Below are positions 1,439 to 42,865 of a stretch of 64,000 bases of DNA, piece after piece; within the stretch, counting starts at the first letter, position 1; each line of letters begins with the position of its first letter. This stretch comes from a bacterium (GTDB lineage: Bacteria; AUK180). Location: positions 29,984 to 93,983 of the forward strand of contig JAGLGN010000014.1 in the NCBI GenBank assembly GCA_023144005.1, given 5' to 3'. The notes under the pieces were generated by a model. That model did not search any database. It had not been told where the DNA came from and was given only the letters and a program-made list of their open reading frames with translations. The translations under genes and the position numbers were made by a program.

Positions 1439-1467
1439 TTGAATAAGAAAAGCATTTTTGGTATAAT
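1439..1467 (+). promoter_or_regulatory. sigma70-type promoter, probably leaderless, of the coiled-coil gene
   Basis: TTGAAT-17-TATAAT with extended TG; ATG follows 5 nt after the -10; no SD. Confidence 0.65.
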
Positions 1468-1472
1468 TCACC

Positions 1473-3530
1473 ATGATAAACAAGGATCGCTTGCCTAAAC
1501 TAGAGAAACTTCCTTCATATGGCAAATTCGGCTCCCTGATCAAACTTAATGATGTGGAGAAACTTGTTTCAAAATACCTTCTGGCATTCGACGAACTCTT
1601 TAATGAAATTGAAAAATCGAGAGAATTAACATCACAGTTCAAAGAATTGAAAGCTGAACATCAAAAGATCCTGAAGAGAAAAGATAAGAATGAAGAAGAA
1701 TTACAGAGAAAACTTGGACTGGCCAAAGATAGATTCCTGAATATGAAAAGTGAGATCAAGGGCCTTAACAAGCAGATCAGCGACCTGAAAAAACAAACCG
1801 AATCGGTGGGCGCATCCTTTGAAGAAATTGAAAAAGACCGTAATGAAAAAGATAATGAACTCAAGGCCCTTGAAAATAGCAATGACGGGATTAAAAACGA
1901 CCTGAAGGACGCGAAGAAAGAGAATAGACGGCTTTTAAAGGAAAACACAACCGCGGTGGAGGCTTTGGAAAAACTGGAGAATGATCAGAAAGAAAAGACT
2001 TCCGAGATTTCCGGGTTAAGGTTAAAAATCGACGAGATTCAAGCTGAGAAAGAAAGAATTCAAAACGAATTCGATGGTCTGAACAATAATTTGTCCGATT
2101 ATGCTTTTGACAAGGAGAACCTGAACGAGCAGCTTGAAAAGGTCACAACTAAACTATCGGATAATGAAAGCGCTTTGAAGAACAACAACAATATCATCAA
2201 GAATCTGAGTGCGACCATAGATGAACTCAGAGGTGAAATAAAAGACCTTGATAAGGACAAGGAGGATCACAGAATCGGAATGAAGGAATTGCAATCACTT
2301 CAGAAGGCCGCTGACAAAGATAAGGTGAAACGGGAAAATAAAATTGTCAAATTTGAGAATAAAATAGAAAAACTGGAGTCAGAAAAAAGGGCCGTTGCCG
2401 ATGAAAGGGATTCTATTTCAGAAGACTTGAAAAAACAAATAGATAAACTGAATATCGATATATCCGAATTTGAGGAACTGCTTTCCGATTCCGAGGTCGA
2501 CCAGGATCGTTTAAAAAGCGATACTGAAGATAGTAAGGCTCACATTAAAGACCTTGAGGCTACTATAGATAGCCTCAGAAAGAGTCTTGAAGAAAATGAT
2601 GAAAAACTAAAAGAGAACGAAGCAGAAAAAGAAAGGTGCGCCTCTGAGCTGAAGAACAATCTAGAATCGAGGGACAGTGAGATCTCACAAATCAGCAGAG
2701 AACTCGATGCAATCACGCAGGACGATTTATCGGCACAGAATGAGCTCAAGGAAAAAGAACAAAGTATAACCATGCTGAACAGGGAGATAGAAGACAAAGA
2801 TAAGCAGATCGATCGGCTCGGAATAAAGCTTGAGGAATTATCTAAGGACGACCTTGATAGAAAATCGGAGCTAAAAGAAAAGGCGTCGCTTATTGACAAA
2901 CTGAGTAAAAACATTTTTGAAATGACTTCTGAAAATTCCGGGCTTAAGGATGACCTGGAAAAACTGAGCAATGAAAGAGACGAAAAAGTAACTCTTGTCT
3001 CAGAGCTGAGTGAAAAGATCGGGCAGCTTGAAGATCAGGACGGTAATATAAAAAGCAGTATTGCTGAAAAAGAAGGGTTGATCGCAAATCTGGAAAAGGC
3101 TAATGCGGATATCCTGAAAGAAAGGGAGGATCTTAGTAAAGAAATAAAGATTATCCTCGAAGAGATAAAAAAGGAAAAAGAGAATAACAAAGAATTGAGT
3201 AAACAATTGAAATTAAGAGAAAAGGAAATGGAGGGACTTCTTAAAAAGATAGACGAGGTTCTGGGGACTCAACTTAAAGAGGTCGAGGATCCACTTGCGG
3301 AATATCTGAATCTCCAGAAACTGGAACTAGAGGAAATACCCAGCGACAAACAAACAACTGGCGGAGATGAATCAGATATGCAAAGCAAATTGATGAACAC
3401 CATGAAGGAAAACAAGGAATTGAGAGAGCAGATGACAGAACTGCAAGACATTCTGCAATCCAGGGGGAATGAGCTAATCCGTTTCAAAGAGCAAGTGGCG
3501 GCTCTTCAGAAAAGGCTTGACGGATCTTGA
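1473..3530 (+). CDS. Long coiled-coil protein (685 aa) with no recognisable catalytic domain
   Basis: E/K/L-rich heptads along almost the whole length; no signal peptide, TM segment or Walker motif seen. Confidence 0.8.
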   Translation: MINKDRLPKLEKLPSYGKFGSLIKLNDVEKLVSKYLLAFDELFNEIEKSRELTSQFKELKAEHQKILKRKDKNEEELQRKLGLAKDRFLNMKSEIKGLNKQISDLKKQTESVGASFEEIEKDRNEKDNELKALENSNDGIKNDLKDAKKENRRLLKENTTAVEALEKLENDQKEKTSEISGLRLKIDEIQAEKERIQNEFDGLNNNLSDYAFDKENLNEQLEKVTTKLSDNESALKNNNNIIKNLSATIDELRGEIKDLDKDKEDHRIGMKELQSLQKAADKDKVKRENKIVKFENKIEKLESEKRAVADERDSISEDLKKQIDKLNIDISEFEELLSDSEVDQDRLKSDTEDSKAHIKDLEATIDSLRKSLEENDEKLKENEAEKERCASELKNNLESRDSEISQISRELDAITQDDLSAQNELKEKEQSITMLNREIEDKDKQIDRLGIKLEELSKDDLDRKSELKEKASLIDKLSKNIFEMTSENSGLKDDLEKLSNERDEKVTLVSELSEKIGQLEDQDGNIKSSIAEKEGLIANLEKANADILKEREDLSKEIKIILEEIKKEKENNKELSKQLKLREKEMEGLLKKIDEVLGTQLKEVEDPLAEYLNLQKLELEEIPSDKQTTGGDESDMQSKLMNTMKENKELREQMTELQDILQSRGNELIRFKEQVAALQKRLDGS

Positions 3531-3551
3531 TCCGGATATTATCAGGGACGG

Positions 3552-3908
3552 TCAGTCTGAATTTTTATCGATATAATCTGAAATTAATCTGACATCGGTG
3601 TCAGACATATCTTTGAATTCTATACCGAAATCATACAGAGTCCTATTATTTTCGTGCTTTGTAAATACCCTCACCACCTGACCCTGACACTCGATCACCT
3701 TATCTTCAAATTCAAGATCAAAGACAAGCGGTTTAAATACAGAAAGTTCGATCACACTGTCAGTTTCAAGATCTAACTCCAGACAGGTCCCCCCTCCGCT
3801 TATATTAATCAGTTTGGCCGAATATTCCTTTGCATCTCCGCCAAACATGAATTTAATATCAGCGCTATGAGTGTGCAGCCGCTCATGTTTTCTCTTATTC
3901 TCATTCAT
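3552..3908 (-). CDS. PilZ domain protein (c-di-GMP receptor)
   Basis: KRKHER (RxxxR) and NISGGG (D/NxSxxG) motifs; AGGAG RBS. Confidence 0.88.
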   Translation of the reverse strand: MNENKRKHERLHTHSADIKFMFGGDAKEYSAKLINISGGGTCLELDLETDSVIELSVFKPLVFDLEFEDKVIECQGQVVRVFTKHENNRTLYDFGIEFKDMSDTDVRLISDYIDKNSD

Positions 3909-3932
3909 TTAAATTCTCCTTTATATAAAAGC

Positions 3933-3961
3933 AGTATATAATAAAATACCCGGATTATCAA
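3933..3961 (-). promoter_or_regulatory. sigma70-type promoter of the PilZ gene
   Basis: TTGATA-17-TATACT. Confidence 0.55.
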
Positions 3962-4039
3962 GATAGCCTGATCCAAAGTTGGAGTATTGTAATGCAGGAA
4001 TCGTCAATAGCTTCCCTTGATATCGGCTTCGCTTTACCC

Positions 4040-11600: not shown

Positions 11601-11981
11601 CTCGACATTACCGGCATCGTCAGATATGATAATCGTTCCCATGAACATCTGCTCATACTCGGTCTGCTCGAAATACATACCGTCACCACCCTGAGGGTAA
11701 TTGTAAAACTCACCGTACCATGCATGTCCGGGATGAGCATAAGCATCAAAAACAACACCATCCGAGATACCCGTAGCGGTGCCGCTGTAGATAAAACTAT
11801 TGTCGTAAAACGCACCATTGCCCAAGTAGTCCTGTCCGGTAACCATACTGTACAGGAAATTCGAGTAGAATGTATTGATCTCAACATAGGGCGTTCTGTA
11901 CAGCGTTGCCGCACTGGGAAAAAGCCCAACCACAAGAAGGACAGCAACTACAAGTATTGCCTGAAGCTTGAATCTTTTCAT
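8649..11981 (-). CDS. Large secreted acidic protein with FN3-like domains and a FlgD/T9SS-like C-terminal domain
   Basis: Signal peptide MKRFKLQAIL (ATG 11981, GGAGG RBS); C-terminal VPNPF...IYDIKG...WDL.NEDG...GLYFYVI...GKLVIVR. Confidence 0.8.
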   Translation of the reverse strand: MKRFKLQAILVVAVLLVVGLFPSAATLYRTPYVEINTFYSNFLYSMVTGQDYLGNGAFYDNSFIYSGTATGISDGVVFDAYAHPGHAWYGEFYNYPQGGDGMYFEQTEYEQMFMGTIIISDDAGNVETFKDFRNTPFLKSYLVQNPVLSFEGYTYVWGNYEEPHYSVCGTVETKSEAYSPASGISITHRTYQYASSKVNSIFTWSDWGVSADETYDDYEDVLIKDYIITNNSAEDKEIYITYRADLAINTKWTTSGLTASSSSDGLYDIFYYKTEDNGEFNDYAAWQDPIGGLYDGDFGFMYDFTLGADHPVAVGIKALTHAPVAFNIVQYQPDNSASSIAGLTDVDNRLIRYSYRYSGPGVMPSALWTKNPELAPYTFYYDATGDPERTWWYTLDNFLKPLNPMDYFSSGDLYDDFVAPGDFDAPATVPGNYAIAVTVGPIQLDAGETTVVPFVIAGAYGDSADLVTLKGNLDTAFGYADTAYKTGVVGATNFYSPANSLDKSPSPKPEIIDMYEKYDVSDGGINIHIVWDNIDFGAGNDSVPAGCGYNLYYSTWDGLSSTNPSIKYRRLKTGDVTQLCGTLKGAPTAYTPYTDDNFIVPAEQFKSEMNGSDFINYAFALSSNDDAWWDSNTSVPQLESAYFNESMPAYYEFHLVPAAIDLEGEFAYEDNSNVFLLSWSSPASREKDLDRYELYRAGNLEESIYLQGGVYEFIGSDTTSDILMFIDGEEYIVNAADLTFNASDPLNEVILALPGFNDDSDDLIINNFFIQNIEGESPFTVSDVDTTQYKMIWTGSTTNTDVYWDTPTAMLWWEKLDDWGATYYLSETGTTKTVMYETQSFTIAGIYLEGDPETIIDYSDTPLAGDSSYQYYVKKLDFLTPFIDITTSDPFTLESSPDYPTNLAAEDTNKSITLTWDKAAGDIFRYYVYRCSSAAIYDSVEPLDEDYVVKIGAADATTADTYTFVDTYITEYATYYYFVTSFNRTTDLESQPSNVATVSKDFDKEQNLELAHCVPNPFIYGTADALQENNHMVFVQLTENATITIYDIKGGLIRAIEHSATSETTYGDGGEKWDLMNEDGKAIATGLYFYVITNPDDDEDVKKGKLVIVR

Positions 11982-12003
11982 AAGGCCTCCATAATTTTTC
12001 AAT

Positions 12004-12032
12004 ATTATAGCATTTTTCATAATCAATTTCAA
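12004..12032 (-). promoter_or_regulatory. sigma70-type promoter of the CTD protein/PorV (and possibly gap) unit
   Basis: TTGAAA-17-TATAAT with extended TG. Confidence 0.65.
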
Positions 12033-12237
12033 TGAATAAATAAAGGATTCAACGGTGATTATTACGCTCTATTTCAAATGCCCGTACTTGTGATGTCACT
12101 TCACATTTATATCAGACAATATCAACGGACCAAACTGCAGGAATTTCTATAGTCAGTAGTATTTAATGTCTCTGAAAAACCGCTTCAAAATGGAGAAGGG
12201 AATTCCTCTTTCGATTGAGCTTTCTCGGAATCAGCAG

Positions 12238-12954
12238 TTAAGAATAGTCACATCTGATGACCAATTTCCACCAAAGTTTAAATAGCGCATAAAAGACCCG
12301 TATCAGTCGGCGGGTCGTAAAGAACCGAGAGCTACCATGGCGGCGGGAATAATGATGTACCGGTATTTGCTTTATTCTATATCCCGCCCGCTCAATTTTC
12401 TTTACCATTTCAACACAAATCACTCCGGTATCGGAATTTATACTTATTCTGTCGAATACATTTTTTCGGATCAGCCGAAAATTACAATCTACTTCTTTTA
12501 GTTTTATTCTAAATACGATCTTCACAAAAATATTGTACATTCTACCGGCAAGAATTCTATAGAAAGGATCTGAACGATTTGCTCTGATACCGTTTACCAT
12601 ATCAATCTCTTCTCCCAGAAGATCGTACAAAACATGCAATTCTCTTAAGTCATACTGACCGTCGCCGTCAGCATAAAATATCAAATCTTTGGTTGAGTTG
12701 GCAAAGCCGCTTTTCAGAGCAGCTCCATATCCCCGATTGATTCCATGATGAATAACTTTTAGGTTTTCATACTCTCCTAACATTCTGGACAATACTTCCT
12801 TGCTTCCGTCTGTGCTGCCGTCATTTACGACTATTACTTCATAGTCATCCGTGAGTTGGCTCATTGTTTCAATAGCAACTTTGACTACATTTTCTATCGC
12901 GTTGACTTCATTTAAGCAGGGAAAAAAGGCGGAAATAGAGGATCGATCTTTCAT
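12238..12954 (-). CDS. GT2 family glycosyltransferase (DPM-synthase-like)
   Basis: FFPCLNE, VVNDGSTDGS, RGYGAA, DGDGQY; start reassigned to ATG 12954. Confidence 0.9.
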   Translation of the reverse strand: MKDRSSISAFFPCLNEVNAIENVVKVAIETMSQLTDDYEVIVVNDGSTDGSKEVLSRMLGEYENLKVIHHGINRGYGAALKSGFANSTKDLIFYADGDGQYDLRELHVLYDLLGEEIDMVNGIRANRSDPFYRILAGRMYNIFVKIVFRIKLKEVDCNFRLIRKNVFDRISINSDTGVICVEMVKKIERAGYRIKQIPVHHYSRRHGSSRFFTTRRLIRVFYALFKLWWKLVIRCDYS

Positions 12955-12961
12955 TTTTGGT

Positions 12962-12990
12962 ATTATATCTATTATCCAAGGATATGTCAA
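12962..12990 (-). promoter_or_regulatory. Perfect-consensus sigma70 promoter, probably leaderless
   Basis: TTGACA-17-TATAAT, then 7 nt to ATG 12954. Confidence 0.75.
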
Positions 12991-13033
12991 TTGATTCTTG
13001 ACTGAGAATGTATATTTAAATCTGAATGGGAAG

Positions 13034-13975
13034 CTATTCCACTTCCCTTTTTTCGCGAATAACGAATTGGGGAGATCTGTTGGTATTCAGAAAGAGGCGG
13101 CCGATGTACTCCCCTATAACGCCAAGCGATAAGAGTTGGATCCCACCAAGAAAGAGCAGCACAGACGCAATAGACATCCAGTCCGGAGTTGCTAAAGTAT
13201 TAAAATATATTCTTTCCACAAGGGAATATATGAGAAAAACAAAAGCGATAATTGAAACGAATATCCCCATCCATGTAATTGTCCGCAAGGGGATAATTGA
13301 GAAATTTGTAATTGAATTACTCCATACAGACAGCAGCCTTCGCATAGTATAATTGCTTCGGCCCTTTTTGCGTTTGCGGTGGGTGACATCTATCTGCCCA
13401 TAATTATCCGTTGTCCTCATGACCAGACAGTCGATACAAGGAAAGGGGCCCTCATACTTCAGCATTTCTCTCAATACAGACCTTGTGATAATCTTGAATG
13501 ATGAAAGATAGAGCCCTTTTCGTTTTTTAAGCAACAGCGTTGCCATTCGATTATTCACCGCACTACCGAAATTTTTAAATAGAGACTGGCGTTTTCGGCT
13601 AAACCGCCCGAAAACGACATCAAGATCATTCTCTTTCATGTGCGTCAACAGGACGGGGATATCTTCCGGACTTTGCTGCAAGTCGTCATCCATTATTATG
13701 ACCTTGCCTCCACGGCATGATCGAAGGCCGGCAAAGACAGCGTTATCCTGGCCGAAATTCTTTGACAGACGGATAATATTTATTTTGCCGGATTTATCGT
13801 ATAAGCTATTCAGAGTATTCCATGAATCATCTCGGCTTGAGTCGTCCACATATATTATTTCATATGATCCCGAGATATCCTCCATGGCGGAAGTTATCTT
13901 ATCCGTAAGTTCTCTGAGAGTGCCCTCGGAGTTATATACGGGAATGACAACAGAAAATTCTTTCGATTCACTCAT
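13034..13975 (-). CDS. GT2 polyprenol-phosphate glycosyltransferase (ArnC/GtrB-like)
   Basis: VVIPVYNSE, VDDSSRD, NFGQDNA, MDDDLQ; two C-terminal TM helices followed by GVIGEYIGR. Confidence 0.9.
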   Translation of the reverse strand: MSESKEFSVVIPVYNSEGTLRELTDKITSAMEDISGSYEIIYVDDSSRDDSWNTLNSLYDKSGKINIIRLSKNFGQDNAVFAGLRSCRGGKVIIMDDDLQQSPEDIPVLLTHMKENDLDVVFGRFSRKRQSLFKNFGSAVNNRMATLLLKKRKGLYLSSFKIITRSVLREMLKYEGPFPCIDCLVMRTTDNYGQIDVTHRKRKKGRSNYTMRRLLSVWSNSITNFSIIPLRTITWMGIFVSIIAFVFLIYSLVERIYFNTLATPDWMSIASVLLFLGGIQLLSLGVIGEYIGRLFLNTNRSPQFVIREKREVE

Positions 13976-13980
13976 GAGAG

Positions 13981-14009
13981 ATTATAACCTAAATCACTTG
14001 AAGAATCAA
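13981..14009 (-). promoter_or_regulatory. sigma70-type promoter, probably leaderless
   Basis: TTGATT-17-TATAAT, then 5 nt to ATG 13975. Confidence 0.65.
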
Positions 14010-14078
14010 TTTCACAATTGATACTATAACAATCCGGATTTTTGCATCCGATCCACTTTCGTACTCTACATTCAAATA

Positions 14079-15755
14079 TCACTTTGACTCCTTTTCTGTA
14101 TTTAACCTTTCAGATATAGGGTTCAATTTGAGGATACTGAACAATTCTCCGCTATAAACGACATCATAAGCCCCGGAGTAATCCCTGTAATTATCAAGAA
14201 GATAATTATTGAAGTGATCTAATAATGTTTTTCCTATAGCATCGTTCGTAGCGGCTATCAGGATTTTTCCTTGAACAGCTTGCTCCATAAGTTCCTCTGA
14301 TGAATCGATGCTGTAGCACTTAAGAGAGCGGTAATAATAAGGAGAATAAGTGTTCCACCCTCCTGGAATTGTTTCGTATTCCGGATAATCTTTAAACTCC
14401 TTCATCGGCGATGCACATTCATAATTCTGCCATGCGGGATGGATAGGAAGAATAGGCGCAATAGGTCCGTTTAGTTTTTTTGTCATCTTTCTCATTTCTA
14501 TTAAATGCCTTCGGAAATGATCGGCTTTGACAATATTTGATCTTCCAATATCGAAATAATTCAGAAGAAAAAAGACCGAGAGAAGCATTATCACCGTAAC
14601 TCCAAGGGCTTTACGCACCGGCACGGCATCCATACAGAGCACTCCGTGAAATACGAAATAGAAAATAAGAGGTGCCCAAATTCGCTCAGGAAGGCGGATA
14701 AATGAAAAGACAAATATTCCGAGCAAGACCCACACCACTGAGATCACAAGGGGGTCGAACCGTCGGTCCATACGAAAAAGGAAGAGAAAGATTGATAATA
14801 AAACATATAATGCGACAGTAAAGTGAATAGATATCGGAGTCGTCTCTATGTATTCCTTAAGCACTTTGATCTGTGCGTATTTAAATATTCCCGTTTTATT
14901 TTCACGGTTGAAACTTTCGAAGGCAACGGCATTGAATGTCTTTTCACCTTGGAAAAAAAAGTGTTTTGCGAGTTCGTACTCAGCTTTGCTCCAATTTGCT
15001 TTCTTTAGAGCTCCTTCGGTATTCTCATTCTCTTCATGAATATATGTCCCGTTTAAATAACCTCGAGCTTTTTGAAATTTCTGAAATTCCAATGACAGAG
15101 TTCTTTTATAATAGATCCCATTTCCCGCGATCAGGAAAAATGACAGCGCTATACTGGAAATAAGAAGTACTGTTTTTTTCTTTCCGCCTTTGACTAATAT
15201 CCAGATAATCACGGGTAGAAAGAACAATAAAAAGAATGGAAGGAATTCAGATCTTATCAAAAAAGATAGCGGCAGTAAAAGATAGGGTATGATCCCTGTC
15301 CATTTTAAAGAGGTGCTATGCTTGATATCGATCATAAGATATAAAAAGAATGCACTCTGCATAAACAATGCCGTCTTCGTGAAGGTCAGCAAGAAGAAAA
15401 TTCGATAGAAGAAAATTCCAGTAGTAAGAAGCCCGGCAAGAACAGCCTTGGTGTTTTTCAGTTTTGTCAAAGACGAAATAATCACAAACAGTGAAAATAT
15501 GGTCAAGATATTCAGGATTAACCCGTACCATGGAATACCGGGGGCGGCTTTATAAAGCACGCCTAGAGATGAGCTGAAAAGAATATTCGGGAACAATGCC
15601 TTCGCAGAAGCGACTGGACCAAGCCGACCGCTAACCATACGGATGATCAACATATCGTCATTGGTCTCAAATGTCTGGGGGGAAAATATGGTGCCGGCAA
15701 GAATGATCAGGGTGCCGACAAAGATAAAAACCGTATTTCTGCTATATTTAGTCAC
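14079..15755 (-). CDS. Multi-pass membrane protein, possible GT-C glycosyltransferase
   Basis: Many TM segments; acidic ETNDD motif in the first external loop; adjacent to a GtrB-like gene. Confidence 0.55.
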   Translation of the reverse strand: MTKYSRNTVFIFVGTLIILAGTIFSPQTFETNDDMLIIRMVSGRLGPVASAKALFPNILFSSSLGVLYKAAPGIPWYGLILNILTIFSLFVIISSLTKLKNTKAVLAGLLTTGIFFYRIFFLLTFTKTALFMQSAFFLYLMIDIKHSTSLKWTGIIPYLLLPLSFLIRSEFLPFFLLFFLPVIIWILVKGGKKKTVLLISSIALSFFLIAGNGIYYKRTLSLEFQKFQKARGYLNGTYIHEENENTEGALKKANWSKAEYELAKHFFFQGEKTFNAVAFESFNRENKTGIFKYAQIKVLKEYIETTPISIHFTVALYVLLSIFLFLFRMDRRFDPLVISVVWVLLGIFVFSFIRLPERIWAPLIFYFVFHGVLCMDAVPVRKALGVTVIMLLSVFFLLNYFDIGRSNIVKADHFRRHLIEMRKMTKKLNGPIAPILPIHPAWQNYECASPMKEFKDYPEYETIPGGWNTYSPYYYRSLKCYSIDSSEELMEQAVQGKILIAATNDAIGKTLLDHFNNYLLDNYRDYSGAYDVVYSGELFSILKLNPISERLNTEKESK

Positions 15756-17859
15756 TTGACCCGTCCGGTGTTATCTTTGCAGTAAATTCCCCGAAATCCA
15801 GAGAATTCCATGAGAAAACATCAAAATATATTGGATATACAATGCGCTTGCGGTTGTAGTAAGGCCATGAGTCCAAAAAGAATTTTGTAATATTTCTTAC
15901 TCCTTTATCTGTTTGCAGATGAACATAGAATTTCATTTCCGGTTGGATCTTCTTTTTGATCAATATTTCAAACTCAAACACGGTATATCCATGTATTGGC
16001 GAAACAGTATATGACTCGACATCAAAATGTTCAAATTGCTTTTTTTCCGGAAAATAGATCTCCTCGTGCTGAGGGACCTGACCGGCTCTGAAAAGATAAA
16101 TACCCTTCTCTTGAAAGACAAGCTCTCTGGAAACAAGCATCTTTGCTAAAGCGCTCCGTGGCATATCATAGATATCATAAAGGATGTAATCTATGCGGTA
16201 CTTCTTCTCGATAGAGGCCATGTAATCTATTCCATAAAGCGGGGAAAAATATCTGTACATCTCTACAAGCCGCAATTCTCGACCGGTGGACTGGGCAGGG
16301 AAATAATCCCATGGGAGAACATGGACATCATTTGAAGTAAAAGACGATATCAGATAGCTTGATTGAGGAAACGCCAGATATTTTCCCGTAGGAAGATTGG
16401 AATATACCTCAGAGAACATCCTATTTTTTGCAAAATACTTTACCGGAAACAATTTATAATCATTTCGAGTAAGCCACGGCGGAATGTAGCTGATCAATAA
16501 AAATATAGCTGCGACCCAAATAAGCTTGTCTCCGGATACTTTTTTCTGATACTTGTGAATAAGGAGCAGTAATATAAATGAAACGACGACCGGAATAAGG
16601 ATGATGACCCGGTATTTATTCATATATACCACAGGGAGTACTTTATATGCCGAAGATGGAATAAGAACCATAAATATCCATGGTAAAATAGTGAAAAAGA
16701 GCAAGATCGATATGCGCAAATATCCCGTTAACAGCCATAAAACAACAACAATTGTAGCGAGAATGACGGGGAAATACCATTGTTGTTTCACATGATCAAC
16801 TTTCTTTGATATTTCGATCTGTTCACATACCTGTACATTATCCATTGAATGGGGGTTCTCATTTCTAATAACCATTCTATTTCGATAATAATCCTCCGAG
16901 GGCGGCATTAGAGGTCCCTTTAGCACCAGAAGAAAGGAAATCGCCAAAAACACCAGTAAAGCCTTTTCTAGAAATTTGCCCTTATCGGTAAGCAGCAGGT
17001 ACAGCAGAAACACTGACAATATCGCGAAGCCGCTGATCATGTGAACCAGGAACAGGCATAGAAATATCGGTACAAGAAGATACTTCTTTTCTTGCAGCAG
17101 GAGTATGCCCGGAATAAAAAACAGCTGAGCAAAGACCCAGGGCTTGAAATATGAGTTACCGTAATCATCATGTCTGTACATAAGAAAATTCACCGCAAGC
17201 AGCAAAAGAACAAAGATCAGGCCGTGAGAAGGTGAGAATTTTTCAACCAACTCATAGAATCCTATCAAGGCGAAGAGGAGAAATAATAGAGATGAGATAT
17301 GCCAGACCAATTCGATGGATACGGCGCTGAATGAATGGGAAAAGGCGAGGAAGGCGAATTGGCCGGAAAAAGCATATTTAGAATCAGGCCATTTCGAGAA
17401 GAATGGATCAAGAACTGTCATTGTATCATTCTGTATAATGTTGATCGCTCGGGCGGCATAATACGGCGTGTCGGGGTGAACATCACCGATAAACAGTATA
17501 AGCGGCAGTACAAAGAGCCCGATCAAAAAATATTCCTTTTTCACTATCGGCATCAGGGAAGGCCTGTAGAAAAGTATGGCGACCGCTGTGAGTGCAATAC
17601 AGGAATACTGATAATACACAAACGGAAGATTGAATATATAAAATGGAAGAGATAGCATAAACAATGTGTTAATTCCCAGAAAGAAAGTGGTGAAAAGGTC
17701 TTTTCGGCGAAATATCACAGTTCCGATGATCAACGGCATAAGAAAGACAAAGATCAATGAAGGAAGGCCCGTTTTCAGAAAAGCGCTTACCGTAAGCAAG
17801 GTGAGGAGTAGGATTTTTACTGGAAGGCCTTCTTTTAACTGCATCTTAACCGCTGACAT
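15748..17859 (-). CDS. Multi-pass membrane protein, possible GT-C glycosyltransferase
   Basis: Many TM segments; HPDTPYY loop motif; soluble C-terminal region. Confidence 0.5.
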   Translation of the reverse strand: MSAVKMQLKEGLPVKILLLTLLTVSAFLKTGLPSLIFVFLMPLIIGTVIFRRKDLFTTFFLGINTLFMLSLPFYIFNLPFVYYQYSCIALTAVAILFYRPSLMPIVKKEYFLIGLFVLPLILFIGDVHPDTPYYAARAINIIQNDTMTVLDPFFSKWPDSKYAFSGQFAFLAFSHSFSAVSIELVWHISSLLFLLFALIGFYELVEKFSPSHGLIFVLLLLAVNFLMYRHDDYGNSYFKPWVFAQLFFIPGILLLQEKKYLLVPIFLCLFLVHMISGFAILSVFLLYLLLTDKGKFLEKALLVFLAISFLLVLKGPLMPPSEDYYRNRMVIRNENPHSMDNVQVCEQIEISKKVDHVKQQWYFPVILATIVVVLWLLTGYLRISILLFFTILPWIFMVLIPSSAYKVLPVVYMNKYRVIILIPVVVSFILLLLIHKYQKKVSGDKLIWVAAIFLLISYIPPWLTRNDYKLFPVKYFAKNRMFSEVYSNLPTGKYLAFPQSSYLISSFTSNDVHVLPWDYFPAQSTGRELRLVEMYRYFSPLYGIDYMASIEKKYRIDYILYDIYDMPRSALAKMLVSRELVFQEKGIYLFRAGQVPQHEEIYFPEKKQFEHFDVESYTVSPIHGYTVFEFEILIKKKIQPEMKFYVHLQTDKGVRNITKFFLDSWPYYNRKRIVYPIYFDVFSWNSLDFGEFTAKITPDGSSD

Positions 17860-17865
17860 GGCAAT

Positions 17866-17894
17866 AATATATCAAATTATTTGCCATTATCCAA
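17866..17894 (-). promoter_or_regulatory. Extended -10 promoter, probably leaderless
   Basis: TGa-TATATT, then 6 nt to ATG 17859; weak -35 TTGGAT. Confidence 0.5.
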
Positions 17895-18896
17895 GTCATT
17901 AATATGTTCAGCCATCGCATTTCCAATGATCTTATGTACCAATATCGAGGGGTGAGCATCCATGCGGGAAACAACGAGTTTTTTTTCGGGGATCTGAGAA
18001 ATACTGTCGGTAATGTCGGTATATCCTATTTCTGCGATATCCAGAAATTCGGCAAGCCGGGTCATAAGCGAACGGCTGGCCGCGAGGCCGGCAAGGTCCG
18101 GCACAAGGATCACGTGAAAACCGGTTGAATACTGAGAAAGGTATTCCCGTATCGACTCGATATTTTCGACATGTTCGATAAGCATATTATCCGATCTATA
18201 GATTTCTAATAGATATTCCCAATATTGCTCACCCAATTCACTATTTGCACCTTTGTAAATATTCCAAAACAATGAATTAAAGATAAGTGTATTATTGACG
18301 AGAAGGCTTATGAACGGAATTGAAGGGACATCCGGATATGCAGCTCTTTCTACATGATACTTTCTTCCAAGATAATCTACGTCATTTATATAGTGTACAA
18401 GAAAGACAAAAGCAGGCGTATCGGATCTGGTTTTCAGAGCTGCAACCTGGTCGGGAGTATCCCAACCGCACTTTGCGATGGTGTTAACCGTTAAGTCCGG
18501 CCCTACCTCTGAAGCAAGATAAGCCGCCATTCTATTTTTGATATTCTTGATGCCATGCCCTGCAGCCACTGAATCGCCTAAAACGACTATCTTTGCTTTA
18601 GCTGTATCAGTACTTATTTCATTGTCTCGATATCCTTGTTCATTGATCGGTTTCCAATAACGCTGCAACCATATTTTAGACGAAAGAGTGAAGCCAAAGC
18701 TATCCGAATTAATGAAAAAGGCGTTGAATGATATCTCCAATAAACTGAATATTAAAGTAATGATCGACAATAATCTTACTGCTGCATGTATTATTCTGAA
18801 TACCCGACCTTTATTTCTGAATTTACTCAAATACCTGAATAATGCGATAAATATGGTGGGGATCAGGATTAAGGACAGCCAATAAAATGCGCCCAT
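17877..18896 (-). CDS. Membrane-anchored SGNH/GDSL hydrolase family protein
   Basis: VLGDSV, HYIND and DAHP catalytic motifs; two N-terminal TM helices. Confidence 0.85.
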   Translation of the reverse strand: MGAFYWLSLILIPTIFIALFRYLSKFRNKGRVFRIIHAAVRLLSIITLIFSLLEISFNAFFINSDSFGFTLSSKIWLQRYWKPINEQGYRDNEISTDTAKAKIVVLGDSVAAGHGIKNIKNRMAAYLASEVGPDLTVNTIAKCGWDTPDQVAALKTRSDTPAFVFLVHYINDVDYLGRKYHVERAAYPDVPSIPFISLLVNNTLIFNSLFWNIYKGANSELGEQYWEYLLEIYRSDNMLIEHVENIESIREYLSQYSTGFHVILVPDLAGLAASRSLMTRLAEFLDIAEIGYTDITDSISQIPEKKLVVSRMDAHPSILVHKIIGNAMAEHINDLDNGK

Positions 18897-21421
18897 TAAT
18901 ACGACAAGAATATTATTTTAAAGTATGGATACTTCTCCACATCAATTATATCCTTATCGATCTCAATCGTAGGATCAAATCCGTTAATCGTTTCAAGAGA
19001 TGTTTTATACAAAAAATATTCCTCCGCTGTCAACTGCGATCTTTTTTCAAATTTCTCAAGTATTTCCCTTGCTTCGCTCTTCCCCCAGGTTTTATCTTCC
19101 AGTTTCTGTCTGAGAATTGATTTAGCAAATCTCAAGGCCTTTTTCTCATAAGAATTCATCAAAGAATCCTCTCTCAAACAGTATTCTATCAGATGCTCCC
19201 ATTTTCCCGAGACCACCATATCATATGCCAGCCTTTCCCATCCTATCTCAGATACCGAATTGCCAAATAATTCATCATGACGGATCGCGATCTCCACTGC
19301 ATTTTCAAGCGATATACCCCGCAACTTGAAATAATAATTTCTTAAATTACTTTTTTTGGATGGATTAAAAAGATAGGAGGTCAATACTTGTTTTTCCTTA
19401 GGGGTATTTTTCGGAATATTAAAATGGAATTTTTTCACATTACTCCCACTTAGATCCCTCGCTTCAACATTAAAAAATATATGCAGATGCTCCTTCAAGA
19501 ATTCTAATCCAGGGAAAATATCATATAATATCTGCATACTCCTTTGATCCGGAATATCCCCTTGTATCATCATTAAATAGTGATAAGTAGGATTAATAAT
19601 ACTGATGGGATTATCATTTATAACCGGAGGAAGAGGGGAGAGGGCATCTTCCAATGTGTAAACACTCCGGGAAAGTTCGCTGATCGCGGCGTTATCCCAG
19701 ATACTTGAATTAGATCTACTCATTTCATCCCTGATATATTTTGCTTTATCTGCCTGAGACTGCTCTACATCGGTGTGGACAAGTGACGATAATTCCTCCG
19801 AAAGCCCGGTTACCGCATATGCGAACAGCGCGTCTTTGCGTCTGAGCTTATGTATCCTTAAAAATTCAATACCTTCCTTGAATCTTCCTGAATTAAACAG
19901 GCTTACAAAGAGCACAAAATTAATATTCTCATCATTTTTAACATAACGGCGCATCTTGAACAATTCTTGATTTAGCTCCTCCCATCTTTCCTGCTGCCAT
20001 AGTATGTCGGTAAGAAGTTTTCTTGATATAAGCTCCTCAGGAACCATTGAAATGGATGTTCTCAGATCCTTTTCGGCTCCCTTAAGATCGCCTGCAGCCA
20101 AACGGAGAGATGCGAGGTATTTCAGATGAGCCGGATAAACATCTTCCTTAAAATAATCATTAAGATATGCTTCGGCAAAAGAGAAGGGGAGAAATTTATC
20201 CATTTGCTTTGCCCGGGATAGTACATATTCCTGTCTATCGCAGAAATGCGTTATGGGAGAAAATTTACTTAATACTTCGTAACTGTTTACCAATAACACA
20301 AAGATCAATACTGCCGATACCGCGATTTCCTTTGCTTTTGAGTTTCTGCTTTTTACCGTTTTGGTAAAGAGGACGCCATTCAGCGTGGTAATAATGAAAA
20401 ATGCAGCAAGGGGTTGATGCAGCGGGTATTCAAATGCGAAGGACAGCAGATATGCGTAGATCGGCCAATATTGTCTCCAATTATCCCTTCGCAAAAGTTT
20501 GCTCACTATAAAAATATAGAGAAAAATGAAAAGAGCAAAGCCCAACACCCCGCTTTCAACAGCGATGTGGAGAAATTCATTATGCGCACGCTTTACAAAT
20601 ATCTTACGGCTGTTCAGCAAGGAATCATCTTTATTCTCTTTTGCTAATTGAAATTTGTATGCGGAAGGAAATCGCCCCAGACCCGCGCCGAGCGGGTTAC
20701 TCTTGATACGAGCCAAGGTAATTTTAAATATCTTACCCCGGGTATTCCAGGGAAGATCAATACTCAATATAAGGATCAGAAATACCACGGGAAGCAATAA
20801 AAGCATCACTTTCATAATCTTTCTGGATGTGATCGCGCGCAGAAGAACCATTAAAAAAAGCAGGCCTATAGCGCCTTTTGAATATGTTGCAATTAAGGCA
20901 ACGGAATATATCAAAGGAAAGATCCATTTTCTCTTTTGCGCTGAAAAGAGTTCAAATAGAGTCCCAAGCAGAAGAAGAAGGCCTAATTCATTCGGATTTC
21001 CAACGGTGGCGAATACTTTTTTACTTCCCCAGTCAAAGTCCCAGATGGCAAGATCTACAGAAAAATATTGAAGCAAGGCATAGATAGATATCAAGATCAA
21101 TGATATCCTGATGCCGGGAAGAAGATCGCGGTCTCGTCTAAAAGAAAGAAGGGCCGCAAAAAGGATCACCTGGCAGAATTGATATATCCCGGGGCGGCTT
21201 GGCAATATTAACAATAAGATCGCCAGAGGAAAGATGACCAAGAACGGAATATAGGAGATATTCTTCTGCTTACGGGAAAAAAAGCTCCACAAAACAAATA
21301 TTGATATCAAAAGAAGTTTGACTGCCGTGAACGGATTCGACCCCACGGGGATAAATGCTAAAAATATCGCGATGATCAAAAAATTATCGATTATCTTCTT
21401 TATCCCAAATGATCGTTCCAT
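18896..21421 (-). CDS. O-antigen ligase-like (Wzy_C) membrane protein with TPR-like C-terminal region
   Basis: ATVGNPNELG, TYSKGA, PLGAGLGRF, RAHNEFLHIAVESGVLG motifs, followed by helical repeats. Confidence 0.85.
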   Translation of the reverse strand: MERSFGIKKIIDNFLIIAIFLAFIPVGSNPFTAVKLLLISIFVLWSFFSRKQKNISYIPFLVIFPLAILLLILPSRPGIYQFCQVILFAALLSFRRDRDLLPGIRISLILISIYALLQYFSVDLAIWDFDWGSKKVFATVGNPNELGLLLLLGTLFELFSAQKRKWIFPLIYSVALIATYSKGAIGLLFLMVLLRAITSRKIMKVMLLLLPVVFLILILSIDLPWNTRGKIFKITLARIKSNPLGAGLGRFPSAYKFQLAKENKDDSLLNSRKIFVKRAHNEFLHIAVESGVLGFALFIFLYIFIVSKLLRRDNWRQYWPIYAYLLSFAFEYPLHQPLAAFFIITTLNGVLFTKTVKSRNSKAKEIAVSAVLIFVLLVNSYEVLSKFSPITHFCDRQEYVLSRAKQMDKFLPFSFAEAYLNDYFKEDVYPAHLKYLASLRLAAGDLKGAEKDLRTSISMVPEELISRKLLTDILWQQERWEELNQELFKMRRYVKNDENINFVLFVSLFNSGRFKEGIEFLRIHKLRRKDALFAYAVTGLSEELSSLVHTDVEQSQADKAKYIRDEMSRSNSSIWDNAAISELSRSVYTLEDALSPLPPVINDNPISIINPTYHYLMMIQGDIPDQRSMQILYDIFPGLEFLKEHLHIFFNVEARDLSGSNVKKFHFNIPKNTPKEKQVLTSYLFNPSKKSNLRNYYFKLRGISLENAVEIAIRHDELFGNSVSEIGWERLAYDMVVSGKWEHLIEYCLREDSLMNSYEKKALRFAKSILRQKLEDKTWGKSEAREILEKFEKRSQLTAEEYFLYKTSLETINGFDPTIEIDKDIIDVEKYPYFKIIFLSY

Positions 21422-24379: not shown

Positions 24380-24386
24380 ACTTGTT

Positions 24387-24414
24387 TTGAGGCGAAGAAA
24401 GAATATGTTATAAT
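24387..24414 (+). promoter_or_regulatory. Extended -10 promoter, probably leaderless, of the methyltransferase gene
   Basis: TGt-TATAAT (24406-24414), then 7 nt to ATG 24422. Confidence 0.6.
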
Positions 24415-24421
24415 CATTCTA

Positions 24422-25120
24422 ATGAATATCATTACAATATTTTGGAAATCCATTTGGGAGCTAAGAGCAAAGATCCACAAAGATCCCTTGAGGGCAACAG
24501 GAAGAGATCTAAACCCGGAAGTTTATCCCCATCTTGCACAGGAGATCTCTGAGAAACTCCATTTGGTCGAGGGTGATTACCTTATTGATATCGGTTGTGC
24601 CAAGGGAGCATTAGACCTTTTGCTTTCTACAAAGGTTTCTTCGATTATGGCAACGGATTATTCTCAAAGCATGATAGATTGCGCAATAATGAGAAATTCT
24701 GCCAATAATATTGAGTTCCGGCAAGACAATGGCGAGAAGCTGAATCTCTTTTCACAGAAGTTTAATAAAATACTTATATATTCCGTATTTCATTATTTTT
24801 CCTCATTAACAAAGGTTAAAAACCTTCTAATTAAAATATTCGAGAAATTGCCAAGAGGTGGAGAGGTTCTCATCGGGGACCTACCGGATAAAAATAGAAG
24901 GCAATTGTTTCCAAGGAGATATTACTGCGAGCAGAAAGGTATTAAAAGAATAGTCGAATATATTGTCTTTTTTTTATCCTATCATCTCTGGCAATGGTTC
25001 ACTAAGGATTCCCTTTCTGAAATATGTAAACAGATCGGTTTTGAATACAGCTTTCTCCCGCAGGAGACCGAACAACCCACGAGCAGAGACAGGTTTGATC
25101 TATGGCTGAAAAAGAACTAA
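24422..25120 (+). CDS. Class I SAM-dependent methyltransferase
   Basis: LIDIGCAKG, TDYSQSMI, YSVFHYF, GGEVLIGD motifs. Confidence 0.85.
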   Translation: MNIITIFWKSIWELRAKIHKDPLRATGRDLNPEVYPHLAQEISEKLHLVEGDYLIDIGCAKGALDLLLSTKVSSIMATDYSQSMIDCAIMRNSANNIEFRQDNGEKLNLFSQKFNKILIYSVFHYFSSLTKVKNLLIKIFEKLPRGGEVLIGDLPDKNRRQLFPRRYYCEQKGIKRIVEYIVFFLSYHLWQWFTKDSLSEICKQIGFEYSFLPQETEQPTSRDRFDLWLKKN

Positions 25121-26154
25121 AACCTCTGGATCCGGCCGGCGAGGATCTATGGAATGACTTCCTGAAGGAAAGAGAGCACACTTATTTTCATACACTTAAG
25201 TATATGAAATTTATTTGCCAAGTCTACCCTGACTTGAAAAGCGCTTATTCTATCCTGATGAGTGAAGGGGAGGCTCGGGGAATAATCCCCCTTTTCTACA
25301 GTCCCTCTATCTTCTGGGGGAAGAAGATCTCACCGGTTCAATTCAATATGTATGGCGGACCTTTGCTTGACGACCCCGGAGATATTGATATCGTCGCCAA
25401 GGAATTATTCACGCTTTTTCCAAAGAGCACCTATATTGCATTCAGGGATTATTATGGGCGGTTTCCTTCCTCAAGGCACAACAGGACGATCAATGCAGAC
25501 GCTTATTTCACAATCGTTAAATTGAGCAAAAAAGAAAATTTAGCCAAACTGATCTATCGAGAGAGGTTTATTGAAAAGATCCGCTCACTTAAGAAAAATA
25601 ATGCTCTATCATTTCGCAAGATCGGAAAAGATGAACTACATGATCTTTATTGTTTATCCGTAAAATTCTTTAAAAAACGATTTGGCGTTTCATCTTATCC
25701 TGAGAAGTACTTTGAGATCATTTTAGATACTATCGTGAAAGGTGGAAATGGGGAATTGATCGGTTGCTTCTTAGACAAGAGATTAATAGCAGGAACATTT
25801 TTTATCAAATACAGAAACTCCGCCATCTATATGTGGGGCTGTTACGATCTGGCATTGTCACATTTATCACCGATCGCACTCTTATTAGACCATCAGATAA
25901 TTAAATTAGCCTCGGAGGGGTACAAAGAATTAGATCTGGGACAAACCCAAATTGGAAATCAAGGACTTCTTTTTTTCAAAGAGAACTTAGGCGGTGTACA
26001 TAGAAAGTTAAATAAAGTGTACATCCCTAAGGCAAAAAGTTTTAGGATACCTGCGGGAGACAACTCGTTTTCTATTGCTAAAAATGTTTTCCGCGTCTTG
26101 CCAGACTGGTTAGTGAAAACCCTAACCCCCCTTATATTCAGACTCTATAGATAG
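25102..26154 (+). CDS. FemAB-like GNAT family acyltransferase
   Basis: YGGPL, LIAGTFF, LSPIALL, ELDLG...GLLFFKENLGG motifs. Confidence 0.8.
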   Translation: MAEKELKPLDPAGEDLWNDFLKEREHTYFHTLKYMKFICQVYPDLKSAYSILMSEGEARGIIPLFYSPSIFWGKKISPVQFNMYGGPLLDDPGDIDIVAKELFTLFPKSTYIAFRDYYGRFPSSRHNRTINADAYFTIVKLSKKENLAKLIYRERFIEKIRSLKKNNALSFRKIGKDELHDLYCLSVKFFKKRFGVSSYPEKYFEIILDTIVKGGNGELIGCFLDKRLIAGTFFIKYRNSAIYMWGCYDLALSHLSPIALLLDHQIIKLASEGYKELDLGQTQIGNQGLLFFKENLGGVHRKLNKVYIPKAKSFRIPAGDNSFSIAKNVFRVLPDWLVKTLTPLIFRLYR

Positions 26155-26254
26155 ATATGAAGTCCCCTGAATGAATATAGGGACGTTTTCCTACGGTACT
26201 ATTATTATGCGGAGATGATCATATTTCGCTTCTTGCTCTTCCATCAGATAACAC

Positions 26255-41413: not shown

Positions 41414-41637
41414 ATATTTCCTCTCGAACCCTCATTGAGTTCATCTTTTATTTTTTTCATTTTCTCCAGACGGGCCTTCGTCTCGTCCGCGTCAATGGAA
41501 ATGTCAACATTCAGAACATCTCCTTCCTTCACCCCTTGCGGAAGATGCGCGATGGGGATGAGCATTTCTCCGCCGCGGTCAAGGACCACAACGGCAAGCT
41601 CTTCTTCAAATCTGTCTATAACTGCTGTGAGAATCAT
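41410..41637 (-). CDS. DUF3006 family protein
   Basis: AVIDRFEEELAVV...LPQGVKEGDVL...DETKARL; GGAGG RBS. Confidence 0.85.
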   Translation of the reverse strand: MILTAVIDRFEEELAVVVLDRGGEMLIPIAHLPQGVKEGDVLNVDISIDADETKARLEKMKKIKDELNEGSRGNI

Positions 41638-41756
41638 AGGTCTCCTCCATGTTTATTTATTATTTTGCGTAGTCTGAGATTGCGCACCTGCGGCGCAGGC
41701 AGTGAACTCAAGAGAAACATCGAAAATGTTGTCTTTCTCATATCTTTTTCAGTTAA

Positions 41757-41785
41757 ATTCTAACCTTTTTGAGAATGAAATGCAA
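41757..41785 (-). promoter_or_regulatory. sigma70-type promoter of the DUF3006-LTD-comEC operon
   Basis: TTGCAT-17-TAGAAT. Confidence 0.6.
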
Positions 41786-41894
41786 ACTCACAATGGTCTT
41801 TTATTATCTATATATACAAAATATACTAAATAAGGGACACGGACAAAAAATAATACTAAATATACCTTAACTATTTCGCTTACAGCAGAAATAT

Positions 41895-41903
41895 TGGTAG
41901 AAT
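41895..41903 (+). promoter_or_regulatory. Extended -10 promoter, probably leaderless
   Basis: TGg-TAGAAT, then 5 nt to ATG 41909; no SD. Confidence 0.55.
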
Positions 41904-41908
41904 GAATT

Positions 41909-42865
41909 ATGAAATGCGGAATATGCGGAAACAGCAAGGGGAATTCCTCTTACTATGTGAAAGAAATGAAGATAGGAAGCGGTGATAATTTCAAATATAT
42001 GCTCTGTAATGAATGCGGAACACTGCAATTATCCGCTCCACCCGATGATATGCACAAATACTATCCCGCAAATTTTGACAGCTTCTATTCGATAGAGCAT
42101 GGCAAGCCGTCTCTTTTGAAAAAGATTATATTTCGTATCCGCAATGAGCATTCTTTCGGAAAGAAAGTTTTTCTGGGAGAAACGATCGCAAAATTATTTC
42201 CTAATTATATCAATTCCTATCTTTTTGATCTCAATATCCGCAAGGAGTCCAAAATACTCGATGTCGGGAGCGGAAACGGAAAGCTGCTTAGCTCTCTTTT
42301 CAAAGAAGGGCTTCACAATACTCTTGGGATAGACCCCCATATCGAGCAGGACATCACCCACGCCGGAGGCCTGAAGATACTCAAAGGGGGGCTGGAAAGA
42401 GTGAGCGGAATGTGGGATATCATCCTTTTGAATCATTCATTTGAGCATGAGTCGTCGCCTAAAGAGCTGCTGTCCGGGATCAGAACGATCCTGGCACCGA
42501 AAGGAATATGCCTGATAAGAACACCGGTTACGGACTCCTGGGCATTTGAGCATTATCGGCATCACTGGGTTCAGATCGACGCACCGAGACATTATTATAT
42601 TTATTCAACGGATTCGCTGACACTTCTGGCGGAAAGATGCGGATTTAAGGTGAAGAAGGTCATCCGCGATTCAACCGCATTCCAATTCTGGGGAAGCGAG
42701 CAGTATATGAAAGATATCACCTTGCTTAGCGAGCGCTCCTTGTCCATGGGACCGGCGGGATCGATCTTTTCAAGAAAGGAGATCCGGGCATTCGAAAAAA
42801 GAGCAAAAAAGATGAATACAATGGGTATCGGCGACCAGGCCGCATTCTACCTTGTCAAGGAATAA
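41909..42865 (+). CDS. Class I SAM methyltransferase with N-terminal Zn-ribbon
   Basis: CGICG...CNECG; LDVGSGNG; NHSFEH; QIDAPRH motifs. Confidence 0.88.
   Translation: MKCGICGNSKGNSSYYVKEMKIGSGDNFKYMLCNECGTLQLSAPPDDMHKYYPANFDSFYSIEHGKPSLLKKIIFRIRNEHSFGKKVFLGETIAKLFPNYINSYLFDLNIRKESKILDVGSGNGKLLSSLFKEGLHNTLGIDPHIEQDITHAGGLKILKGGLERVSGMWDIILLNHSFEHESSPKELLSGIRTILAPKGICLIRTPVTDSWAFEHYRHHWVQIDAPRHYYIYSTDSLTLLAERCGFKVKKVIRDSTAFQFWGSEQYMKDITLLSERSLSMGPAGSIFSRKEIRAFEKRAKKMNTMGIGDQAAFYLVKE

Follow-up and report, generated by a model that had tools for sequence, protein, structure and literature searches.

Genes in which a −10 promoter box lies a few bases before an ATG, with no Shine-Dalgarno (SD) site, form a real class in the genome studied here, one that goes beyond chance. 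Eight such sites lie in the window (the whole 64-kb stretch of DNA that was analysed), and on sequence evidence they are probably sigma-70-type promoters giving leaderless or near-leaderless mRNAs, as members of a minority class found throughout the family. A sigma-70-type promoter (−35 TTGnnn, spacer of 16–17 nt, TAnnnT, often an extended TG) would abut the ATG, and RNA polymerase would start at the A of the ATG or within 1–2 nt of it. The mRNA would thus have neither a 5′ leader nor an SD site, and the ribosome would presumably recognise the 5′-terminal AUG directly, that is, by leaderless initiation. This class exists alongside SD-led initiation, which about half of all genes use, and it is common to the seven genomes of the family. 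We infer a start at the A of the ATG, which fits the −35 spacing, the pyrimidine at −1, the restriction to ATG, the lack of an SD, the position at the heads of transcription units and the conservation.

Layout of the eight sites and their SD-led neighbours

The window comes from an uncultured sediment bacterium, and the seven-genome family is placed in the candidate phylum Mcinerneyibacteriota. With d as the number of nucleotides that separate the −10 hexamer from the ATG, five of the sites have d=5, one has d=6 and two have d=7:

1439–1475, + strand: TTGAAT-17-TGgTATAAT-TCACC-ATG, d=5 (−35 1439–1444, −10 1462–1467, ATG 1473); 685-aa coiled-coil gene 1473–3530
12952–12990, − strand: TTGACA-17-TATAAT-ACCAAAA-ATG, perfect −35, d=7 (−35 12985–12990, −10 12962–12967, ATG 12954); GT2 glycosyltransferase gene 12238–12954
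13973–14009, − strand: TTGATT-17-TATAAT-CTCTC-ATG, d=5 (−35 14004–14009, −10 13981–13986, ATG 13975); GT2 gene 13034–13975
17857–17894, − strand: TTGGAT-17-TGaTATATT-ATTGCC-ATG, d=6 (−35 17889–17894, −10 17866–17871, ATG 17859); 703-aa membrane protein gene 15748–17859
21419–21455, − strand: TTGAAA-17-TGaTATATT-TCACC-ATG, d=5 (−35 21450–21455, −10 21427–21432, ATG 21421); 841-aa Wzy_C (O-antigen-ligase-like) gene 18896–21421
24343–24379, − strand: TTGAAA-17-TATAAT-TGCTA-ATG, d=5 (−35 24374–24379, −10 24351–24356, ATG 24345); WbqC-like gene 23650–24345
24387–24424, + strand: TTGAGG-16-TGtTATAAT-CATTCTA-ATG, d=7 (−35 24387–24392, −10 24409–24414, ATG 24422); methyltransferase gene 24422–25120
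41895–41911, + strand: TGgTAGAAT-GAATT-ATG, extended −10 without a −35, d=5 (−10 41898–41903, ATG 41909); methyltransferase gene 41909–42865

An earlier note on this DNA had claimed eight −10 boxes 5–7 nt before an ATG lacking an SD, most of them with a −35 at 17 nt and/or an extended TG. All eight are where it had placed them, with an SD core at 0/8, a TTG at 16–17 nt in 7/8 and an extended TG in 5/8. The promoters of 24345 and 24422 stand back to back in one intergenic region of 76 bp. At 17859 the −35 box lies inside the upstream same-strand gene, whose stop codon is only 17 nt before the ATG, so that read-through transcripts must exist there too. An Rfam scan of the 64-kb window gave a tRNA-Leu as its sole match, and none at the eight sites.

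The genes set against these sites as SD-led (gap, rpsT, the bactofilins and the outer-membrane protein genes) had been credited with GGAGG, and GGAGG or AGGAG is found before gap (7664), the bactofilins (726, 1149), the outer-membrane barrels (8641, 32447, 36994) and rpsT (51673), as well as before secG and tpiA. Two of these genes read as follows:

1149–1197, − strand: bactofilin, TTGACA-17-TAAGAT, 19-nt leader with GGAGG, ATG 1149
51614–51675, + strand: rpsT, TTGACT-17-TAAAAT, 30-nt leader with GGAGG, ATG 51673

The suspicion that TTG starts in the ORF track are promoter boxes is borne out by five examples: at 12990, 1197 and 12032 the supposed start is the first half of a −35 box (TTGACA, TTGACA and TTGAAA, respectively), and at 24351 and 51633 it overlaps a −10 box. 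For annotation, this means that longest-frame ORF tracks run into promoters in a lineage where about 6% of starts are without an SD, and which needs gene callers that model leaderless starts.

Genome-wide enrichment of −10 boxes before ATG

Genes were called with a purpose-written program based on ORFs and codon usage, with the first ATG only (1994 first ATGs), so that the counts are approximate. Boxes matching the −10 hexamer at 5/6 positions or more number 85 at d=5, whereas distances of d=9–40 average 21 (Poisson 9e-26); there is a small shoulder at d=6 (30 boxes, p=0.04), no excess at d=7 (16 boxes among the 1994 first ATGs), and a depletion at spacings of 2–4 nt. Of the TAnnnT peak that had been predicted 5–7 nt before starts, the part at 5 nt is clearly present, that at 6 nt weakly so, and that at 7 nt is absent. 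The peak is specific to ATG, GTG, TTG and CTG starts showing none genome-wide. A count of TTG-N20-TAWAAT-Nn-ATG across the whole genome, made independently of any gene caller, gives 47 matches at n=5, 22 at n=6, 11 at n=7 and 16 at n=8, and 3–9 at most of the remaining spacings as far as n=14. The same motif at n=5 is found in 7/7 family genomes, with 26–55 matches each against 0–5 for the reversed pattern.

In a genome of 43% GC with AT-rich intergenic DNA, matches to a −10 hexamer might be expected to arise by chance, but other ATGs within the same upstream regions show no −10 peak, and we consider a chance origin of the class extremely improbable. It was rejected on the d=5 enrichment, the reversed-pattern control and the gene-caller-free count.

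Of the 85 boxes at d=5, 49 have a TTG at spacer 17 and 15 have one at spacer 16 (64 in total), with 0–4 at each other spacer, in a count made without any −35 filter. These numbers bear on the idea that the boxes are AU-rich, unstructured ribosome-loading sites (S1-type enhancers) on polycistronic RNA and no promoters at all, which the short gaps in the same-strand cluster that holds several sites (17 nt before 17859, 79 nt before 12954) would accommodate. Such an RNA element has no need of a TTG 17 nt upstream, of an extended TG or of a fixed distance of 5 nt, and there would be no upstream transcript to carry it at half of the class, because there the neighbouring gene is divergent; we regard this explanation as very unlikely. 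The upstream neighbour is divergent in 50% of the class, as opposed to 13%, and is either divergent or 60 nt or more away in 79% of the class.

A pyrimidine at −1 with a purine at +1 is a known start-site preference. Immediately before the ATG, C or T is found in 82% of genes with d=5 and in 83% of those with d=6, compared with 47% of other genes (C in 43%, compared with 10%); the selection filter did not call for this pyrimidine. No pyrimidine bias at −1 is seen among d=7 genes. Given that d=7 has neither enrichment nor this bias, the RNAs from 12954 and 24422 may carry a leader of 1–2 nt; that of 12954 may equally be leaderless. A more general form of this idea, that the promoters are real but that transcription starts a few bases off the A, giving leaders of 1–4 nt, or unproductive transcripts that begin with the G of the ATG, draws on the same d=7 genes, on the good −35 boxes of the 11 and 16 sites at spacings of 7 and 8 nt, and on the preference of E. 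coli RNA polymerase for the seventh base beyond the −10 in the figures quoted by Yu et al. 2017 (PMC5730371). At d=5 and d=6, however, the single sharp mode, the restriction to ATG and the Y(−1)A(+1) step are difficult to account for if transcription starts anywhere but at the A, and we judge a displaced start to be unlikely as a general account.

The leaderless-type class amounts to approximately 125 of the 1994 genes (6.3%, about one in sixteen) and to roughly 12% of transcription-unit heads. An SD core (GGAG/GAGG/AGGA) precedes 3/125 of its genes, as against 954/1994 first ATGs overall (48%); a 16S gene for an anti-SD check was not found in the MAG, and SD use is shown by motif profiles. 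The suggestion of ‘widespread’ leaderless translation therefore stands as to a genuine genome-wide class, and not as to its extent, which is that of a minority of about 6% of genes in a genome where half are SD-led. A leaderless-rich genome, with leaderless starts at no less than a fifth of genes, is not what these figures describe, the share being 6.3% here and about 11% in samples of three other genomes (G005, G003 and G006). Genomes of the leaderless type are said to make up ‘group C’ of GeneMarkS-2, reportedly in Lomsadze et al. 2018.

Start-codon assignment and conservation in the family

The start of each gene is its first ATG by assignment, and it might be argued that starts have been mis-called, with the true starts further downstream, preceded by an SD, and with boxes that serve leadered genes. 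Gene 1473, with a weak AGGA before a TTG at codon 7, is the one case that would suit this argument; in the other seven genes no SD-led start was found within 50 codons downstream. Pfam domains begin at residues 8–10 in 3/8 of the flagged genes, namely a GT2 domain from residue 8 in both 12238–12954 and 13034–13975, and a WbqC domain at residues 10–225 (profile positions 1–217 of 218) in 23650–24345; gene 41909–42865 has a CxxC motif at its N-terminus, and gene 1473 has weak, coiled-coil Pfam matches only. Alignments of orthologues begin at residue 1. The class further includes genes which, from reading the sequences, we take to be Era, Der, NrdR, GlyQ, Def, DnaG, LigA, RadA, Dxr and GpsA; their N-termini look typical of their families, and those of Era, Der, NrdR and GlyQ speak against mis-calling. 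The scarcity of SD-led alternatives downstream, gene 1473 and its weak AGGA apart, led us to reject mis-called starts, a reading to which we give hardly any credence.

Of 186 orthologue pairs between G005 and G000, both members are leaderless-type in 5, where 0.95 would be expected. At glyQ, TGaTATAAT-N5-ATG is kept in three genera at 67–72% protein identity, while the discriminator has diverged. The arrangement is thus retained at housekeeping genes (glyQ, nrdR, der), which argues that leaderless expression probably works, and such genes can evidently keep it across genera. Within the window, the promoter of gene 1473 is identical in the congeners G001 and G002, where the first codons differ synonymously, and the box and spacing at 41909 are kept in G002 despite a diverged distal upstream sequence; the box is absent from the G005 orthologue of that gene (51% identity). 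Since gene 1473 is genus-specific and the polysaccharide locus at 12.2–25.2 kb has no DNA match in congeners, conservation at family level is shown on housekeeping genes.

Start-site register and comparison with known systems

The leaderless mechanism is already known, and what is unusual here is the tight modal spacing of 5 nt. The class has much in common with the TA-led leaderless genes of the bacteria surveyed by Zheng et al. 2011 (PMC3160421): a TAnnnT or TATAAT box few bases before the start, no SD, and a position at the heads of transcription units. In those genes the first T of the box lies about 12 bp upstream of the start, leaving 6 bases between as opposed to our modal 5 nt. The share of 6% falls within the 4–7% listed there for Firmicutes and Proteobacteria with a detectable signal, and is far below the averages of 19–39% for Actinobacteria and Deinococcus-Thermus, so that the genome is not leaderless-dominated. 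A barely studied candidate phylum thereby joins the bacteria that mix SD-led with leaderless initiation.

In Deinococcus radiodurans and D. deserti, the box adjacent to ORFs has been found experimentally to be a classical −10 that yields leaderless mRNA, must lie at a particular distance from the start codon and gains strength from a −35 spaced at 17 bp (PMC12340547; de Groot et al. 2014, PMC4007540). There it lies approximately 6–7 bp upstream, roughly one gene in three has it, and its usual form is a TAnnnT lacking a −35, whereas here it lies at 5 bp at 6% of genes, as a near-consensus TATAAT with a TTGAnn −35.

For E. coli, the values of Vvedenskaya et al. 2015 as given in Yu et al. 2017 (PMC5730371) place 8%, 55%, 29% and 7% of starts at positions 6, 7, 8 and 9 after the −10 element. 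The rules set out there are a pyrimidine at −1, a purine at +1 and a start 6–9 bases after the −10, and the base composition of our class agrees with the first two. With d=5, the sixth base downstream of the −10 element is the A of the ATG, and in all seven family genomes the A of the leaderless ATG is mostly at this position, which accounts for only the 8% of E. coli starts quoted above. The seventh base is the commonest in the sister family, where spacings of 5, 6 and 7 nt are represented 12/33/24 and 9/24/18 times, in contrast to 47/22/11 here. Among 301 independent leadered promoters in the genome of the window, the Y-R maximum falls at bases 5–6 after the box (35% vs about 23%, p=3e-6); the leadered promoters of the sister family (G007, n=71) are too few to place this step. 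RNA polymerase in this family may prefer a start one base closer to the −10 than that of E. coli, Deinococcus or the sister family, a suggestion that we put forward tentatively. The one-base shift in promoter-to-ATG distance between sister families is a ready-made comparison for asking what sets the register in which RNA polymerase starts.

The window also holds the densest leaderless-type cluster of the genome, with 6 in 15 kb where the next best has 4, and this cluster is a low-GC polysaccharide island absent from congeners. In a post hoc comparison, sugar and glycosyltransferase families, each closed from one seed, are leaderless-type in 10 of 41 cases against 6% overall (p=1e-4).

Start codons and promoter boxes in the window

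The window forms positions 29984-93983 of contig C6 of a metagenome-assembled genome of 2.67 Mb and 43% GC (G000:C6:29984-93983). An earlier note had drawn attention to eight ATG codons that lack a Shine–Dalgarno (SD) sequence and have a -10 box 5-7 nt upstream, taking them as a sign of probable widespread leaderless translation. Its positions for start codons and boxes are correct in all eight cases, with the following spacings (d counts the bases that separate the -10 hexamer from the ATG):

ATG at 1473, d = 5
ATG at 12954, d = 7
ATG at 13975, d = 5
ATG at 17859, d = 6
ATG at 21421, d = 5
ATG at 24345, d = 5
ATG at 24422, d = 7
ATG at 41909, d = 5

An SD core is found at 0/8 of these sites, in agreement with the note. 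TTGnnn lies at a 16- or 17-nt spacer in 7/8, including a perfect TTGACA-17-TATAAT at 12954, and an extended TG is present in 5/8. Within 50 codons downstream of the ATG, seven of the eight genes have no SD-led alternative start, and in gene 1473 a weak AGGA stands before a TTG at codon 7. Among their domain matches, GT2 begins at residue 8 and WbqC at residue 10. The d = 5 group, with five sites, provides the best leaderless candidates, and site 17859 is likely of the leaderless type; its ATG lies 17 nt past the stop codon of the upstream gene, so read-through RNA must carry this gene too. Sites 12954 and 24422 have strong predicted promoters, whose RNAs may bear a leader of 1-2 nt. The 76-bp intergenic region 24346-24421 holds two promoters back to back, their -35 boxes 7 bp apart, which lead into divergent leaderless-type genes (WbqC-like and methyltransferase).

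The SD-led contrast genes (gap, secG, tpiA, both bactofilins, the outer-membrane barrels and rpsT) do have GGAGG or AGGAG, spaced as usual from the start. The proposal that some TTG "starts" of the ORF track are really promoter boxes was borne out at 12990, 1197, 12032, 24351 and 51633: the TTG forms the first bases of a TTGACA -35 box at 12990 and 1197 and of a TTGAAA -35 box at 12032, and overlaps a -10 box at 24351 and 51633. The longest-ORF TTG codons at 1197, 12032 and 51633 sit inside promoter boxes of SD-led genes with leaders of 19-30 nt, the true starts of which are:

ATG at 1149 (region 1149-1197), bactofilin
ATG at 11981 (region 11981-12032), signal-peptide protein
ATG at 51673 (region 51614-51675), rpsT

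A leaderless-type gene class across the genome

A simple ORF and codon-usage procedure called 2068 genes, which cover 92% of the genome, and -10 boxes (at least 5/6 positions of TATAAT) were profiled by their distance from 1994 first ATGs. Boxes number 85 at d = 5, compared with an average of 21 over d = 9-40 (Poisson 9e-26); d = 6 has 30 (p = 0.04), and d = 7, with 16, shows no excess. Boxes are rarer than background at spacings of 2-4 nt. No such peak occurs at other ATGs of the same upstream regions or at internal in-frame ATGs. When the pattern TTG-N20-TAWAAT-Nn-ATG was counted in G000 independently of gene calls, we obtained 47, 22 and 11 matches at n = 5, 6 and 7 and 3-9 at most other spacings, and no peak arose with GTG, TTG or CTG in place of ATG. 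The genome-wide 5-7 nt peak that the note had named as a check on its claim is therefore clear at 5 nt, weak at 6 nt and absent at 7 nt.

These boxes have the character of promoters. With no -35 filter applied, TTG precedes 64/85 of the d = 5 boxes at a 16/17-nt spacer, compared with 0-4 at any other spacer, and 23/85 have an extended TG. Position -1 holds a pyrimidine (C or T) in 82% and 83% of the d = 5 and d = 6 genes, respectively, but in 47% of other genes (C alone, 43% vs 10%), a bias that is not imposed by gene selection; pyrimidine at -1 with purine at +1 is a known preference in bacterial start-site selection (PMC5730371).

Under a "full promoter" criterion, for which background is about 10 per position, 79, 29 and 17 genes qualify at d = 5, 6 and 7, so that 125/1994 genes (6.3%) are leaderless-type. 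Only 3/125 have an SD core, compared with 954/1994 overall. Half of the class has a divergent upstream neighbour (13% of other genes), and such a neighbour or a gap of 60 nt or more is present for 79%; members of the class therefore head transcription units, of whose heads they make up roughly 12%. As read from sequence, the class includes Era, Der, NrdR, GlyQ, Def, DnaG, LigA, RadA, Dxr and GpsA, whose first residues look like the typical N-termini of their families. Low-GC genes are somewhat more often leaderless-type (8% vs 4%).

Since roughly half of the genes have a correctly spaced SD core, SD-led initiation is the main mode in G000 and predicted leaderless starts are a sizeable minority. 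The predicted leaderless class is thus not "widespread"; it takes in 6% of genes and is dense locally, in the window. The window is itself unrepresentative, because it contains the densest cluster of the genome (6 in 15 kb; the next best has 4).

Conservation, spacing and start-site register

A phylum-level genome search yielded nine genomes, seven from the family of the window (f1) and two from a sister family (f2). Contig C42 of one f2 genome (G007) is DAOVMD010000010.1, labelled Candidatus Mcinerneyibacteriota at NCBI, which assigns the lineage to this candidate phylum. TTG-N20-TAWAAT-N5-ATG has 26-55 matches in 7/7 f1 genomes, which range from 33% to 46% GC, and the reversed pattern has 0-5; the same peak appears in gene-based profiles of samples of G005, G003 and G006, at about 11% of genes. 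At glyQ, three genera whose proteins are 67-72% identical keep TGaTATAAT-N5-ATG, and the five bases between box and ATG differ among them. Gene 1473 has an identical promoter in the congeners, where the coding sequence has synonymous changes. G005 and G000 share 186 reciprocal-best pairs, of which 5 are of the leaderless type in both genomes (0.95 expected). Turnover is common, several G000 orthologues having their promoter 8-10 nt from the ATG. Sequence statistics and conservation together make the predicted leaderless reading well supported.

The trait itself, leaderless genes with a -10 box adjoining the start, is already well described: Zheng et al. 2011 (PMC3160421) reported such genes in 207/953 bacterial genomes, averaging 19% in Actinobacteria, 39% in Deinococcus-Thermus and 4-7% in Firmicutes and Proteobacteria with a detected signal, and in D. 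radiodurans the box has been shown by experiment to be a classical -10 region (PMC12340547). The Mcinerneyibacteriota lineage is probably new for it. The one unusual feature here is the modal spacing of 5 nt, found in all seven f1 genomes, compared with 6 nt in both f2 genomes.

Matches to TTG-N20-TAWAAT-Nn-ATG at n = 5/6/7
G000 (f1, genome of the window): 47/22/11
G001 (f1, congener): 55/25/10
G002 (f1, congener): 26/14/3
G003 (f1): 45/33/38
G004 (f1): 34/25/12
G005 (f1): 45/34/20
G006 (f1): 43/34/21
G007 (f2): 12/33/24
G008 (f2): 9/24/18

In the sample taken of G011, an unrelated genome, the peak is also at 6 nt (9 vs 0 at 5 nt). The f1 mode likewise differs from the genomes of Zheng et al. 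2011, in which the first T of the box lies about 12 bp upstream, a spacing of 6 nt, and from D. radiodurans, with its box 6-7 bp upstream. For E. coli polymerase, 55% of starts fall on the seventh base past the -10 element and 8% on the sixth (PMC5730371). In an independent set of G000 leadered promoters (n = 301), the pyrimidine-purine maximum falls at bases 5-6 past the box (35% vs ~23%, p = 3e-6); this register was placed in G000 only, the f2 sample (n = 71) being too small. Taken with the f1 spacing mode, these promoters make a start-site register shifted by one base in f1 a reasonable reading, which we hold tentatively, as possible rather than probable.

A polysaccharide-type locus

The dense cluster lies at 12200-26200 of the window and comprises two GT2 genes together with a Wzy_C-like, a WbqC-like, a methyltransferase and a GNAT gene, nearly every gene or gene pair having its own promoter abutting the ATG. 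The locus has 39-40% GC between flanks of 44-47%. Neither congeneric genome has a DNA match to it, which makes it an accessory island that varies between strains. Sugar-metabolism genes (GT2, GT4, SDR-epimerase) are leaderless-type in 10/41 cases vs 6% overall (p = 1e-4, post hoc), and a second small cluster of them lies at C24:1272-4926 of G000. Heptamer-type repeats (ggttgga / ctaacct units) occur just 5' of promoters at ~45250-45290 of the window and upstream of glyQ on G000:C34.
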